The notes beneath the pieces were generated by a model, which was not told the origin of the DNA, made no database searches, and worked only from the letters and a program-made list of their open reading frames with translations. DNA of 60,664 nt. Source: Thermoplasmata archaeon (GTDB taxonomy: Archaea > Thermoplasmatota > Thermoplasmata > Lutacidiplasmatales > UBA184). The first letter of the stretch is position 1. Each line of letters starts with the position of its first letter. The translations under genes and the position numbers were made by a program. This document shows, piece after piece, positions 2,734 to 57,407 of this stretch. Location of the stretch: positions 1,068-61,731 of the forward strand of contig JAKAYT010000005.1 of assembly GCA_021826685.1 (NCBI GenBank). Reading direction: 5' to 3'.

Positions 2734-2816
2734 GCCGGGGTGGCCGAGCGGCCAAAGGCGGCAGACTCAAGATCTGCTCTCGCAGGAGTTCCCAGGTTCA
2801 AATCCTGGCCCCGGCA
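2734..2816 (+). tRNA. tRNA-Leu(CAA), CCA not encoded
   Basis: Acceptor GCCGGGG/CCCCGGC, anticodon arm GCAGA-CTCAAGA-TCTGC, long variable arm, T-loop GTTCAAAT. CTTAA box ~30 nt upstream. Confidence 0.97.
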
Positions 2817-2834
2817 CTCTGCCCAGCCCGTGTC

Positions 2835-38320: not shown

Positions 38321-38469
38321 TTTCAGCGCCCGAGAGCTAGCGAGCGATGGGGCGTATAAGAGCGCATCCGAGCGGGAGACTGGCTCCGCTAAGTTCGGTG
38401 CGGGACGGCCGAGAACTCCGCCGGGAGGGCTACCCCGCAAGCTCAAATGCCCGCTCTCGGTGACTGAAT

Positions 38470-38561
38470 CGGTAGGGGGAGCTGTGAACCGGCTGAGAGG
38501 ACGGGCGTCGCCCGTCGACCCCTGGAACCTGCACGGGGTAATGCCCGCGAAGGGAACGCTA
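38470..38561 (+). promoter_or_regulatory. TPP (THI-box) riboswitch
   Basis: GGGGAGC...GCTGAGA...ACCCC..GAACCTG..CGGG-GTAATG-CCCG-CGAAGGGAA, directly upstream of a thiamine ABC transporter. Confidence 0.9.
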
Positions 38562-38604
38562 TGCACGGGCTAAGACGACTCTCCGCCGGTTCCCGGCGGG
38601 GCGA

Positions 38605-52233: not shown

Positions 52234-55200
52234 GTGTCCCGGATGGCGAGCAACACCGGCGCGTGCGGGATGGACCGGCCCGGGTTCGGAAGCTGTGGAC
52301 CCGACACGGTCGCATCGGGCTCGGAGGAGATCGCGGGACCGCCACGGCCCGCCCCCGGGAGTCGGAGCGGGCGTCGCGTCCACGTTCGCTCGATAGGGAC
52401 GGGACCCCTTGCGATCGGGGTCGTCGCGATGATCGTCCTAGTTTCCTTTCCGTTGGGTACTCTCGCTTCCACCGCTCTCGATCCACGAACTTCGGCCGGG
52501 GTTCCTACGCCGCTCGCAGCGGCCACGAGCAGCGCCGGCAATGTGATTGCGGGTTACGTCTGCCTGAATGTCGTCCCGGCGGCGAGTGCCGGTGGGTGCG
52601 GGGCCGAGCCGCCCCTGGTCAACGACACGGTCTGCCTTTCGCCGTGGTCGGACTTCTCTTCGAGTCAGCCTCTCGTCTGGCCGAACGACTCCACGCCGTG
52701 TCCCGTGGGGACTCAGACCGACTCCGCGGGCGCGTTCTCCCTCGGGTACGGAAACGAGACCGGTTCCGCGGTCCTCTGGTCGGTCAATGGGTCGACCTAC
52801 AGCGGCGCGTTCGCGTTGCTGTCGCTGGGCAACGGATCGAGGGAACAAGACCTAACCGCCAGTCCGTACGCCGCCCAGTCGACGCGGACGTACCTGCTTC
52901 CGGGGTACTCCAACCTCAGTCGATACGCGGCGAATCACAACGGTCCCTGGTCGTACTGCGCCCCGGGGGATGGGGGCATCTGCGGCGTGCAGGTGCCAAT
53001 CCTCTCGTGGACCCAAGACGGCGCGTTCTACGTCAACCGGACCGACGAGCTCGTCTTCGACTCCTTTGCCAACCAGAGCGTGACGGCGATCGCCCCCTGG
53101 CTGCCGCTGTACCAGAACCTGATGTTCTATCAGGGGACCGAGAACACCGAGTGGACGACGACCGACGGCTCCTGGATCTACACCTACGGGTGCCCGACCT
53201 CCTGCGACTCGAATTCGCCCCTCGAGTTCTATGCCGTGAACGTGACCACGGGACGCACGTTCTCCCATACGTTCGCGGGCGTTACCGAGTCGTCCGTGAA
53301 CCGGAACGGCCAGGTGCAGATGATCGGGGAGGATGGGAACCACTCCGTCGTGGTCCTGGAGGCTTCGAATGGGGGCGCGGGCGCCACGTTGTACGCCTGG
53401 AACCTGTGGAATGGCACCCAGTGGGTCTTGGGGAGCCTGCCGTATTTCGAGGCGAACAACAACTTCTGGGTCGATGCGTTGAACTCGTTCATCGACGTCG
53501 AGGCGCAGGACAGCCCGGCGGACGTGGCGAGCCAGTGGGAGCTCGTGGGACCGGCGCCCGGCACGTCGGTCGAGGAGGTGGCCAGCGTCCAGTACTACTC
53601 GGGGTACACCATCAATGGGGTCGATTGGGGCGGTTACGACGTCACCACCCACGAGGTCGCTTGGGACTCGGAATGGATGACTGTGGTCTACCAGCTTCGC
53701 TGGAGCCCCGCCGACGGCACGTTCGTCCTCGGCTCCCTTCGCGAGCGGTGGCTCCCCGTCGACCCCTCCGGCGACCAGTTGTACAACGGTCAGCCCTGGA
53801 TCCCATACCCCGTCTCCTCGGAGCACCGGAGCGAGGTCGTCGCGGGCGGTTGCGTACCGAACATGGGCGTCGCCGCGTTCGGCAACGACAGCGTCGGGGT
53901 CGATCCGTTCACGGGGACCTTCTGCGACTCGAACGTAACGTGGTGGAGCCTCGGCTTCGTGAACACGAGCGCGGGGGCGGGGTACTGGATGGGGGGACCG
54001 CCCCCCTGGTCGGTCGAGAACCAGTTCTACAACAGCTCCTATGGGATTCTCACGCTCTCCACGAACTGCCGCTCCGCGTGCTCGATCAACGGGGAAAACG
54101 AGGCTTCGCAAGGCACCGTGAAGTATGTCTATCCGACCGCGGGCCCTGAGTTCCCGTTCCCCGCCACGTCTTCCCTCGCGGAGCCGACACCCCCGGGGCC
54201 GGTGACCGGGCTCGCCGTGGAGCGCTCGACGAACCGGCTCGTTTTCTTCTGGGAACCTCCCAGCTCGGGCACGAACCCGCTCCTCAACTACACGCTGTAC
54301 TGGCGGATCGGCTCCACCCCCGGGCAGAGCGAGAACCTCCTCCCTTCGAACCACACCTTTACCCTCGCCCTGCCGGGCCTTCGCAACGCGAGCGAACTCG
54401 AATACGGCGTGCAAGCCTGGAATCTGCACGGAGGAGGGCCGGCCGCGCTCCACGAAATCCGGCTCGTGGGCACCCCGGTCGACTTCTCCGAAAGAGGGCT
54501 GCTGAACGGCACCCTTTGGGGCGTTTCCTTGGGCGGGACGACGTACACTTCCTCAAGTCCTGCGCTGTCCCTCTTCGCACTGAACGGCGCCTACCCCTAC
54601 ACGATCAGCGCGGTCTCGGGATGGCACCAGGGGACCCTCCCATACTCGGGCACGATCACGGTCAACGGAACTCCGGTGGACGAACCAACACTGGCCTTCA
54701 CCCCGGTCACGTACGAGGTGACGTTCAAGGAGAGCGGACTCCCGACGGGAACGAATTGGTCGGTGATGCTCGGGGGAGCGAAGAAGAGCTCTTCCACGAG
54801 CACCGTGACCTTCACCGAGCCGAACGGGAGCGATGCCTACACCGTTTCGGACGTACCGGGATGGCACCAGACAGCGTTAGCCTACTCCGGAGCGATCACG
54901 GTGAACGGGGCATCGGTCGCAGAGCCGACGCTGACCTTCGACCCAGAAGCGTACCCGGTCACATTCGCCGAGACGGGCCTGCCCCGGGGGATGGAGTGGT
55001 ACCTCAACCTCACCGGAGGTCCGTCGTTTCGCTCGACGACGGGCGCGATCGCATTCACCGACCCGAATGGGACGTACCGCTACGCGGTCGGGAGCGACGG
55101 GAGTTACACGGCGGCGGCCCCGGGCGGGATGCTGACGGTGGACGGGGCTCCGGTGGGGGCGTCCATACCCTTCGTTAGAACCTATGGGCTTACGTTCGTC

Positions 55201-55584
55201 CGTCCGGCCGGGACGCCGACGGCGGCGTTCTGGACGATCTACGTGAACGCGACGACGGCGTCCGCAAGTGTCTCGGAGCTCGGGAGGCACTGGCCATCGG
55301 ACATCGTCCGCAGCACTACCGCCAACACGCTGACGGTCTTCGTGCCGAATGGGACGTATGATTACGCGATCACGGTTTCTGGGATGCCCGCGTTGACGGC
55401 CCAAGGGACCGTGACCGTACGGGGATCGCCGGCCCAGGTGAATCCTCCGCCCTCGCCCTGCAGCCCGGTCTTGGGACTCTGCGCCCCCACCGGCTACGGC
55501 GTTCTCGCCGTAGTGCTGATCGGGGCACTGAGCGCGATCGGAGCCGTAGCGCTCGTTATCCGGCGGCGTCGGCCCCTACGTTAG
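52234..55584 (+). CDS. Large cell-surface glycoprotein: uncharacterised N-domain, FN3 domain, thermopsin-type Ig-like repeats, C-terminal TM (start may lie ~40-150 nt downstream)
   Basis: Signal-like segment, many NxS/T sequons, FN3 pattern PGPV.GL...FW.P....Y..YW...Y.VQA.N..G, repeats V.F.E.GLP.G..W.V.L, TM helix then RRRR. Confidence 0.88.
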   Translation: MSRMASNTGACGMDRPGFGSCGPDTVASGSEEIAGPPRPAPGSRSGRRVHVRSIGTGPLAIGVVAMIVLVSFPLGTLASTALDPRTSAGVPTPLAAATSSAGNVIAGYVCLNVVPAASAGGCGAEPPLVNDTVCLSPWSDFSSSQPLVWPNDSTPCPVGTQTDSAGAFSLGYGNETGSAVLWSVNGSTYSGAFALLSLGNGSREQDLTASPYAAQSTRTYLLPGYSNLSRYAANHNGPWSYCAPGDGGICGVQVPILSWTQDGAFYVNRTDELVFDSFANQSVTAIAPWLPLYQNLMFYQGTENTEWTTTDGSWIYTYGCPTSCDSNSPLEFYAVNVTTGRTFSHTFAGVTESSVNRNGQVQMIGEDGNHSVVVLEASNGGAGATLYAWNLWNGTQWVLGSLPYFEANNNFWVDALNSFIDVEAQDSPADVASQWELVGPAPGTSVEEVASVQYYSGYTINGVDWGGYDVTTHEVAWDSEWMTVVYQLRWSPADGTFVLGSLRERWLPVDPSGDQLYNGQPWIPYPVSSEHRSEVVAGGCVPNMGVAAFGNDSVGVDPFTGTFCDSNVTWWSLGFVNTSAGAGYWMGGPPPWSVENQFYNSSYGILTLSTNCRSACSINGENEASQGTVKYVYPTAGPEFPFPATSSLAEPTPPGPVTGLAVERSTNRLVFFWEPPSSGTNPLLNYTLYWRIGSTPGQSENLLPSNHTFTLALPGLRNASELEYGVQAWNLHGGGPAALHEIRLVGTPVDFSERGLLNGTLWGVSLGGTTYTSSSPALSLFALNGAYPYTISAVSGWHQGTLPYSGTITVNGTPVDEPTLAFTPVTYEVTFKESGLPTGTNWSVMLGGAKKSSSTSTVTFTEPNGSDAYTVSDVPGWHQTALAYSGAITVNGASVAEPTLTFDPEAYPVTFAETGLPRGMEWYLNLTGGPSFRSTTGAIAFTDPNGTYRYAVGSDGSYTAAAPGGMLTVDGAPVGASIPFVRTYGLTFVRPAGTPTAAFWTIYVNATTASASVSELGRHWPSDIVRSTTANTLTVFVPNGTYDYAITVSGMPALTAQGTVTVRGSPAQVNPPPSPCSPVLGLCAPTGYGVLAVVLIGALSAIGAVALVIRRRRPLR
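54460..55200 (+). repeat. Internal ~240-nt (~80-aa) tandem domain repeats in the surface protein
   Basis: For example cgggatggcaccag..tactc.gg..cgatcacggt.aacgg recurs at ~54618 and ~54857. Confidence 0.8.
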
Positions 55585-55854: not shown

Positions 55855-55961
55855 CGCCCGTGCTGGGATTCGAACCCAGGTCTGAGGCTCCGCAGGCCTC
55901 TAGGATAATCCATTGTAGCGGGTCGGGAGACGCTCCCGCCCCGTAGCTACCCCACACGGGC
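55855..55961 (-). tRNA. tRNA-Arg(GCG) with a 32-nt intron in the D-loop (55913-55944)
   Basis: Acceptor GCCCGUG/CACGGGC, anticodon arm GAGGC-CUGCGGA-GCCUC, T-arm CUGGG-UUCGAAU-CCCAG. Removing the insert restores a 75-nt tRNA. Confidence 0.93.
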
Positions 55962-56090
55962 ACCCGGTGTTTGCTCGCCGACGGCGCGGCGAGCGAGCGA
56001 AGCCCCGTATAAAACAGCGTACCGAGTCTCGGAGTCTCGCTCTCCCAGAATTTATAGCGGCCTCGTTCCCTCGCGCCGAGAGCGGCATCG

Positions 56091-57407
56091 ATGACAGGGT
56101 CACGAGGCGAGGATCCGTGGGAGCAACTCCGCTCGCTACCGAAGGGCCAGGACATCGAGGTCACCGATGCGGAGGGTCGACGCTGGGTCGGGACCGTGAT
56201 CCCTCACCACGAATTCTCGGGCGATCGCATTCTACAGATCAAGCTCGAGAGCGGATACAACGTCGGACTTCGCATCGGCCCGGGGGTCTCCTACCGACTG
56301 CGCTCCCCCTCCCGCTCCACGCCCCCTCCCCCCGAACCCCCATCCACGGACCGCCCGGCCGCGCCGGAGCGGGAGAGTGTCACGTTGCTGACGACCGGCG
56401 GCACCATCGCATCGCGCGTCGATTACGAAACGGGGGGGGTTCGTCCGGTCAAGACCGAGTCCGAGCTCCTGGAGTTTTATCCGGATCTCGACGCGGACGG
56501 CCCAGTCCATGCCCTGCCGGTCCTCGACCGCCTCAGTGAGAACATCGTGCCGGAAGACTGGGCGGTGCTCGCGGAGGCCGTGCGAGGATCGTTCGCGGCC
56601 GGCAGTCGCGGCGTGGTCATCGCCCACGGAACGGACACCCTCGGTTTCACGGCGGCCGCGCTCGCCTACCTCCTTCCGCGCCTTCCGGGTCCGGTGGCGC
56701 TGGTGGGCGCCCAACGATCTCCGGACCGACCCTCCTCGGACGGGCGCTCGAATCTGCAAGCCGCCGTTCGGCTCGCTCGCTCGCGCGAGTTGGGAGAGGT
56801 CGTCGTGGTCATGCACGCCGGCCTCTCCGACGACCGGTTCGCAATCCATCGGGGAACGCGGGTCCGCAAGATGCACTCGACGCGGCGCGACGCGTTCCGG
56901 AGCCCGACGGACGGCCCGCTGGGATACGTCGACGCGAATACGGTCCACTGGGTGCGGCCGCCACGGGCCCCGCACCATGGCCCCCCCACCGTGGATGGGC
57001 CGCTCGACCCGAGCGGAGCGCTGCTCTGGTTCTATCCCGGACTCTCCCCCACCCGCGCGGAAGCGTTTGTGCAGGGCCATCGTGGAATCGTCCTAGCCGG
57101 GACCGGTCTCGGTCACATCGCGGAATCGCATCTCGATTGGATCCGTCGCGCGGTCGACCGAGGCACGGTCGTGGCCATGACGACTCAGTGCCTCGCCGGA
57201 GCGGTCGACCCGTACGTATACGCTACCGGACGGGACCTCGTGCGCGCGGGCGTCACCTACCTCGGCGACCTGCTGCCCGAAACCGCTTACGTCAAGCTCC
57301 TCTGGGCGCTTGGCCACGAGCACGCGGCGGAGGGCGTCCGGAAGAGACTGCTCACGCCCACGGCCGACGACCTGTCCGAACGACGGCGCCCCGAGGAGTT
57401 CGAGTGA
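56091..57407 (+). CDS. gatD: Glu-tRNA(Gln) amidotransferase subunit D
   Basis: IKLESGYNVG, TGGTIASRVDY.TGGV, HGTDT, GAQRS.DRPSSD, RKMHS.RRDAF, D.LPETAYVKL.W.L. Confidence 0.97.
   Translation: MTGSRGEDPWEQLRSLPKGQDIEVTDAEGRRWVGTVIPHHEFSGDRILQIKLESGYNVGLRIGPGVSYRLRSPSRSTPPPPEPPSTDRPAAPERESVTLLTTGGTIASRVDYETGGVRPVKTESELLEFYPDLDADGPVHALPVLDRLSENIVPEDWAVLAEAVRGSFAAGSRGVVIAHGTDTLGFTAAALAYLLPRLPGPVALVGAQRSPDRPSSDGRSNLQAAVRLARSRELGEVVVVMHAGLSDDRFAIHRGTRVRKMHSTRRDAFRSPTDGPLGYVDANTVHWVRPPRAPHHGPPTVDGPLDPSGALLWFYPGLSPTRAEAFVQGHRGIVLAGTGLGHIAESHLDWIRRAVDRGTVVAMTTQCLAGAVDPYVYATGRDLVRAGVTYLGDLLPETAYVKLLWALGHEHAAEGVRKRLLTPTADDLSERRRPEEFE

Follow-up and report, generated by a model that had tools for sequence, protein, structure and literature searches.

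A relaxed D-loop intron in the tRNA-Arg(GCG) gene of a Thermoplasmata lineage and its conservation among relatives

Reviews hold that euryarchaea with an α4 or α′2 form of the endonuclease EndA have strict canonical tRNA introns only, and that an enzyme must have a specificity loop to remove relaxed ones. The locus described here raises the question of whether a Thermoplasmata tRNA-Arg(GCG) gene carries a relaxed intron, how long its lineage has kept it and what form of EndA would remove it. The gene lies in a 60,664-nucleotide stretch of DNA (hereafter the window), in which a first-pass annotation had proposed, from the sequence alone, a 32-nt insert in the D-loop of the tRNA. Several metagenome-assembled genomes (MAGs) from mine drainage, tailings and sediment, assigned to an uncultured Thermoplasmata archaeon, contain the contig of the window; these MAGs, together with the GatD relatives described below, support the Thermoplasmata lineage that the annotation had assumed.

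Archaeal EndA is documented to act on relaxed HBh′, hBH and BHL motifs and on introns of the D-loop (PMC5829648, PMC3239211, PMC4090602). A full-text literature search found no paper linking tRNA introns with Thermoplasmatota or Methanomassiliicoccales, and introns are nowhere mentioned in the paper that defined Lutacidiplasmatales (GC about 69%). The kind of intron is known already, and for this archaeal group it is unreported in the literature searched. Taken together, the results make it very probable that the locus is a functional tRNA-Arg(GCG) gene with its own promoter, whose precursor would contain an old 32-nt D-loop intron removed by EndA cleavage and ligation.

The interrupted tRNA-Arg(GCG) gene

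The gene occupies positions 55855–55961 on the minus strand as a complete pre-tRNA body of 107 nt in which CCA is not encoded, as recognized by sequence reading, by ARAGORN on the spliced form and by 44 complete orthologues beside gatD. Read from 55961 to 55855, the minus strand is GCCCGUGUGGGGUAGCU[ACGGGGCGGGAGCGUCUCCCGACCCGCUACAA]UGGAUUAUCCUAGAGGCCUGCGGAGCCUCAGACCUGGGUUCGAAUCCCAGCACGGGCG, where the bracketed 32 nt correspond to 55913–55944. The 5′ exon, GCCCGUGUGGGGUAGCU (55945–55961, minus strand), covers tRNA positions 1–17 in the segments GCCCGUG UG GGGU AGCU and is invariant in 47 of 47 loci. The intron, ACGGGGCGGGAGCGUCUCCCGACCCGCUACAA (55913–55944, minus strand), lies between positions 17 and 17a. 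The 58-nt 3′ exon (55855–55912, minus strand; positions 17a–73) consists of the segments UGGAUUA UCCU A GAGGC CUGCGGA GCCUC AGAC CUGGG UUCGAAU CCCAG CACGGGC G, with the anticodon GCG at 55891–55893 (minus strand) as assigned by ARAGORN.

Removal of the 32 nt yields a regular 75-nt tRNA-Arg(GCG) cloverleaf in ARAGORN. Its acceptor stem has 7 bp, its D-loop AGCUUGGAUUA is 11 nt long, and the anticodon and T stems have 5 bp each. The insert and the 75-nt product proposed by the first-pass annotation are both exact. A canonical tRNA is interrupted and excision of the insert restores its cloverleaf, as in archaeal EndA-type introns. The minus-strand interval 55855–55961 is confirmed as a genuine tRNA-Arg(GCG) gene with a D-loop intron.

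The predicted exon–exon junction, at which ...GGGGUAGCU is joined to UGGAUUAUCC..., can be compared with intron-less tRNA-Arg(GCG) genes found in contigs of public runs, which belong to other organisms of the same habitats and have lower-GC flanks. These genes agree with the window from 55854 up to exactly 55912, beyond which they read AACTACCCCACTCGGGC, an uninterrupted 5′ exon. Their D-loop, AGUU-UGGAUUA, has the same length as the predicted spliced form, AGCU-UGGAUUA. The predicted junction is thereby independently supported through these homologues. An intron-less allele with the flanks of this organism was not found in the contigs of four DNA runs. The metatranscriptome contig matching the gene (three metatranscriptome runs) comes from another, intron-less organism and says nothing on splicing here. 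As a separate observation, relatives with divergent intron versions occur in mine-drainage and sediment samples (runs X2, X6 and X10, matching window 55883–55962); they have 6–11 differences and small indels within 55913–55944, and one of them reaches a contig depth of 767 (run X10).

A TATA-box-like element, TTTTATA, is located at 56008–56014 (minus strand), about 50 nt upstream of tRNA position 1, and 8-mers resembling CTTTTATA are found 49–58 nt upstream in 43 of the 47 orthologous loci. In six genes of the window, CGC and CGU account for 149 of 300 arginine codons, and about half of the sampled arginine codons therefore depend on tRNA-Arg(GCG), which appears to be an essential tRNA.

Other features of the window were noted in passing. 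An uninterrupted tRNA-Leu(CAA) at 2734–2817 (plus strand) is detected by ARAGORN and Rfam (56.7 bits); not every tRNA gene here has introns. A TPP riboswitch aptamer match at 38465–38573 (plus strand) barely exceeds the Rfam gathering score (55.2 vs 54.3 bits). Downstream of the tRNA, a 1116-aa open reading frame (52234–55584, plus strand) gives a weak fibronectin type III match only. It differs among the MAGs sharing the contig, being 1113 aa in some and split into 348 and 754 aa in two (L002 and L005), which suggests strain-level variation in a surface protein.

A relaxed splice motif and its conservation

In the proposed structure of the precursor (all positions on the minus strand), G12 U13 A14 G15 of the 5′ exon (55947–55950) pair with CUAC near the 3′ end of the intron (55915–55918) to form a central 4-bp helix H. 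On one side of this helix, C16, U17 and the first intron base, A, form a 3-nt bulge (55944–55946), with the predicted 5′ cut after U17, between 55945 and 55944. The bulge is followed by an intron hairpin (55919–55943) supported by covariation, which consists of the outer helix h′ (CGGG/CCCG), a G-A mismatch, a CGGGAG/CUCCCG helix and a CGU loop. On the other side, the 3′ splice region A-A/U17a (55912–55914) has a predicted cut between 55913 and 55912, two bases beyond helix H. This 3′ site is a loop rather than a 3-nt bulge because it has no flanking helix: G18 and G19 face G11 and G10, and a pairing partner sought upstream of G12 by sequence reading was not found. Formation of the D-stem pairs G10:U25 and G11:C24 would give a second 'bulge' of 11 nt instead of 3.

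The two predicted cuts (U17/A and A/U17a) are both placed two nucleotides beyond the 4-bp helix on opposite strands, as in BHB geometry. The strict hBHBh′ form, which is the substrate class of α4 and α′2 enzymes, has an outer helix at the 3′ site, and this is absent here. What is present is one bulge with both flanking helices and a second site in a loop at symmetric distance; with one full bulge and an open 3′ site, the motif falls in the relaxed HBh′/hBH (bulge–helix–loop) class (PMC5829648, PMC3239211, PMC4090602). The GUAG/CUAC helix, the CUA bulge, the CGGG/CCCG outer helix and the unpaired AA/U 3′ site described in the first-pass annotation were all seen, and its assignment of a non-canonical D-loop site with a relaxed motif stands on the 3′ site without an outer helix and on the 5′ bulge with a covarying helix. 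A strict BHB in another register was also sought and none was found; the 5-bp register GUAGC/GCUAC leaves the D-loop 2 nt too long relative to the intron-less homologues.

The conservation of this structure was followed through gatD, the divergent neighbour of the tRNA gene, which served as a synteny anchor. gatD (56091–57407, plus strand) encodes Glu-tRNA(Gln) amidotransferase subunit D with the Pfam domains GatD_N, Asparaginase and Asparaginase_C, and the next gene is gatE (GatB_N and GatB_Yqey); both neighbours are archaeal. A scan based on GatD alignment, with one genome per species, provided 47 Thermoplasmata loci (L007–L053) whose GatD proteins are 51–83% identical to that of the window, including those of Ca. 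Lutacidiplasma silvani and UBA184. A complete tRNA-Arg(GCG) gene is located divergently upstream of gatD in 44 of the 47 loci, and all 44 are interrupted at the same site. Two further loci end at a contig edge with the 5′ exon still visible, bringing the total to 46 species-level relatives.

The exons are nearly fixed in these loci. Although the tRNA search pattern was loose, specifying the anticodon loop and the T-loop only, every match has the same 17-nt 5′ exon, and the 3′ exon varies in only five columns in the 42 distinct orthologues. The introns are 30–35 nt long, with 42 distinct sequences among 45 genes. In the 42 distinct pre-tRNAs, the proposed structure is 95.7% paired, compared with 40–46% when partners are slid by 1–3 columns; changes on both sides of a pair are seen in seven of the nine intron-hairpin pairs, and the covariation score was reached by none of 500 shuffles. 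The bulge-closing pair of the outer helix is C:G in 42 of 42. Helix H is 99.4% paired, and its changes are restricted to the intron side and are wobble-compatible (U:A to U:G opposite U13 in 19 sequences and G:C to G:U opposite G12 in two). In the same 42 orthologues, C16, U17, A(−2) and U17a never change; the first intron base is A or U, and the base separating A(−2) from U17a varies freely.

By this distribution the intron is old: the common ancestor of a clade with at least 46 species-level lineages would already have had it and passed it on by vertical descent. Beside the gatD loci of Methanomassiliicoccaceae and other outgroups, tRNA-Arg is absent, and synteny beyond the clade is therefore uninformative.

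Thermodynamic folding gave a z-score of −3.98, and none of 200 shuffles folds as well. Minimum free energy (MFE) folds of the isolated D-arm region often favour a competing exon–exon helix, and the full 4-bp central helix is obtained in 16 of 42. The competing helix is unsupported because it needs a pair between intron base 1 and U17a, which is broken by the change from A to U at base 1 in six sequences. The enzyme would need to select or induce the BHB-like conformer.

In the mechanism proposed for this gene, transcription from its own TATA-box promoter would produce a precursor with the 32-nt D-loop intron, in which pairing of G12–G15 with the CUAC near the 3′ end of the intron would create the 4-bp helix, flanked on one side by the 3-nt bulge (C16 U17 N) and the stable GC-rich hairpin and on the other by the open 3′ part of the D-loop. 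EndA would dock on the bulge, helix and hairpin and cut after the second bulge base (U17/A), while its second active site would cut the symmetric A/U17a bond. The halves might then be joined by an RtcB-type ligase, giving a normal 75-nt tRNA that would read CGC and CGU. In this scheme the gene, the exact insert, the motif with its conservation and covariation, the promoter element and the codon demand are observed directly; the EndA step, the precise positions of the cuts, the joining of the halves and the form of EndA at work are inferred.

The form of EndA in Thermoplasmata

Cluster-II Euryarchaeota, including Thermoplasmata, have been reported to encode exclusively α′2 EndA, and only the (αβ)2 and ε2 enzymes remove relaxed introns (Kaneta et al., PMC5829648). 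The same rule of architecture and specificity is stated for euryarchaeal introns in general (PMC4090602, PMC4033280). In published assays, α′2 enzymes cut relaxed motifs poorly; the Archaeoglobus fulgidus α′2 enzyme cuts the D-loop HBh′ intron of Methanopyrus kandleri mostly at the bulge only (PMC5829648).

With five EndA sequences as phmmer seeds, no EndA was detected in any six-frame ORF of the window or of the gatD loci. The family was accordingly sampled more widely with the Thermoplasma acidophilum EndA sequence, assembled piecewise from PDB alignments, as the seed, which led to homologues of the Methanomassiliicoccales type and to others from Thermoplasmata. When 1.84 billion representatives were searched with a profile, 359 proteins were returned at E ≤ 1e-30, and the best 150 listed are mostly about 320–390 aa long; a further search of the family returned 660 proteins at E ≤ 1e-20. 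Ten endA genes that were looked up all have PF02778/PF01974, nine of them showing the pair twice and one (L221) once; another locus, L207, has a truncated gene. Complete endA genes encode 335–394 aa. The two-repeat Pfam layouts and the lengths indicate a predicted single-chain α′2 form in the sampled Thermoplasmata EndA proteins, high-GC ones among them, which come from assemblies other than the MAGs shown to carry the intron. In a tree, 28 of the 34 GC-rich EndA sequences are placed in one 37-member group.

The region in which a specificity loop would reside was compared by aligning 16 C-terminal catalytic repeats with those of Methanocaldococcus jannaschii, A. fulgidus, an A. fulgidus construct with an engineered Crenarchaea-specific loop (CSL; 3P1Y) and an ARMAN-type enzyme. 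From the [FY]G motif to the LxLSLxE helix, the Thermoplasmata proteins have 5–6 residues, as in narrow-specificity enzymes; in the same interval, the engineered CSL adds 10 residues and the ARMAN loop several. It is plausible that the lineage uses a plain α′2 enzyme. A scan of metagenomes with a three-motif EndA DNA pattern gave 120 loci, mostly of haloarchaeal, Archaeoglobus-like, methanogen or ARMAN type; the pattern demanded H or Q before the catalytic Lys motif, where T. acidophilum has S, and any Thermoplasmata EndA gene with S at this place would consequently have been missed.

Several side observations concern the endA genes themselves. At L208, L209, L212–L214 and L219, endA and a convergent TFB (TFIIB) gene are adjacent or at most one gene apart, with gar1 following in L208, L209, L212 and L213; in L210 and L218, endA is instead found after purL–purQ. 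These neighbourhoods (TFB, gar1 and purL–purQ) could help to locate endA in fragmentary MAGs. One EndA from a Thermoplasmatota MAG (P0204) has a low-complexity insertion of five tandem EEKRP units in the N-terminal subdomain of the catalytic repeat, which is absent from the 15 other aligned sequences. Another (P0184) bears the source label 'Halobacteriales archaeon'; in the tree it clusters with the GC-rich EndA clade of Thermoplasmata, and its source bin is probably mislabelled.

Two explanations of how the intron is removed can be considered. The first is that this order-level, Lutacidiplasmatales-like clade relies on an ordinary loop-less α′2 EndA to splice the relaxed intron efficiently, which we regard as a serious but tentative proposal that may well prove wrong. 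The second concerns the enzyme and not the intron: a broadened-specificity EndA, whether an extra enzyme of (αβ)2 or ε2 type or an α′2 enzyme with a new specificity element, might remove the intron, in which case the lineage obeys the rule that associates relaxed introns with broad enzymes. The first-pass annotation had also thought of a relaxed-specificity EndA. That rule is well documented (PMC5829648, PMC3239211), and the acid-mine communities of this organism also house ARMAN archaea with an ε2 enzyme (PMC3239211); against this second explanation, all sampled Thermoplasmata-type EndA relatives are single-chain, two-repeat proteins of about 335–390 aa, and all 16 sampled catalytic repeats resemble the M. 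jannaschii and A. fulgidus enzymes in having 5–6 residues at the CSL/ASL site. A broadened enzyme is thus possible but somewhat doubtful.

Known systems resemble the present intron in different respects. [quoted passage not shown] It differs in the tRNA concerned, in the intron position (20b/21, against 17/17a here) and in its (αβ)2 enzyme, as opposed to the α′2 form reported for Thermoplasmata; moreover, it concerns one species in which splicing was proven by RNA-seq, whereas the present intron is known from the genes alone in 46 species. The intron at 59/60 of pre-tRNA-Cys(GCA) in ARMAN-2 (Ca. Micrarchaeum; PMC3239211), also an acid-mine-drainage archaeon, has the same relaxed arrangement (hBH, or bulge–helix–loop), with a single bulge next to a 4-bp helix and the other site in a loop, but it is a T-loop intron, and the enzyme is a three-unit ε2 EndA with an ARMAN-specific loop whose cleavage was shown in vitro. 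In Thermoproteales and other Crenarchaeota, as related in later papers (Marck and Grosjean, 2003; Sugahara, 2008; via PMC4090602, PMC4033280), transplantable BHB-type sites are likewise found outside 37/38, including in the D-arm; there, by the same accounts, the enzyme is an (αβ)2 EndA with a Crenarchaea-specific loop and many introns are young and mobile, whereas the intron described here is fixed and old within an order-level clade.

Annotation, alternative readings and significance

The expectation of the first-pass annotation that standard tools may miss this gene held for both programs used. The Rfam tRNA model is silent at its gathering score; at a permissive threshold it gives 25.4 bits, below the cut-off of 29, and covers the 3′ exon only. 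ARAGORN in its default mode makes a wrong, truncated 69-nt call at 55855–55923 (minus strand), whose start is in the intron and whose acceptor stem is mismatched, and with the -i option it forces a false anticodon-loop intron. tRNAscan-SE 2 in archaeal mode looks for non-canonical introns by default (PMC8450103), and the gene may therefore be found by this program.

That neither ARAGORN nor Rfam recognizes the whole gene speaks for a disrupted pseudogene, with decoding left to another, intact tRNA-Arg(GCG). This reading is strongly disfavoured and has a very small probability, given that the exons are essentially invariant in the 44 complete orthologues while the intron and flanks diverge freely, that the promoter element is conserved and that the intron structure is kept by compensatory changes. 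Scarcely any credence can be given to retention of the 32 nt in a mature tRNA with an enlarged D-loop hairpin. The insert parts U17 from G18–G19, which must reach the T-loop; its sequence is free to vary except at exactly the BHB-like features, and it ends at positions with endonuclease geometry. The normal 11-nt D-loop of the intron-less homologues also argues against retention. Recent acquisition of the intron by this strain, which the first-pass annotation had put forward, is contradicted by 46 species-level relatives, with GatD as little as 51% identical, in which the gene is interrupted at this very site by introns that are divergent in sequence and homologous in layout. The probability of a recent acquisition is practically nil.

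The preferred reading, a functional tRNA-Arg(GCG) gene with an old D-loop intron, has practical consequences. ARAGORN-based pipelines would log this tRNA as a defective gene, and it would be missed (Rfam) or mis-called (ARAGORN) across the whole clade, which affects the tRNA counts used for MAG quality and studies of codon usage. The intron is also a stable marker of the clade, and its covariation record is well resolved.

For the biology of the lineage, the interest of the finding lies in the archaeal group and in the question of its EndA enzyme. A relaxed D-loop intron held for so long in an apparently essential Thermoplasmata tRNA offers a direct test case for the rule that ties euryarchaea with α4 or α′2 enzymes to strict introns. 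If the clade does splice this intron with an ordinary loop-less α′2 enzyme, the accepted rule that tolerance of relaxed, non-canonical introns goes with the architecture or specificity loop of EndA would not be general; either α′2 EndA would broaden its specificity in another way, or a helper (a cofactor protein, a modification or the tertiary fold of the tRNA) would present the second site to the enzyme.
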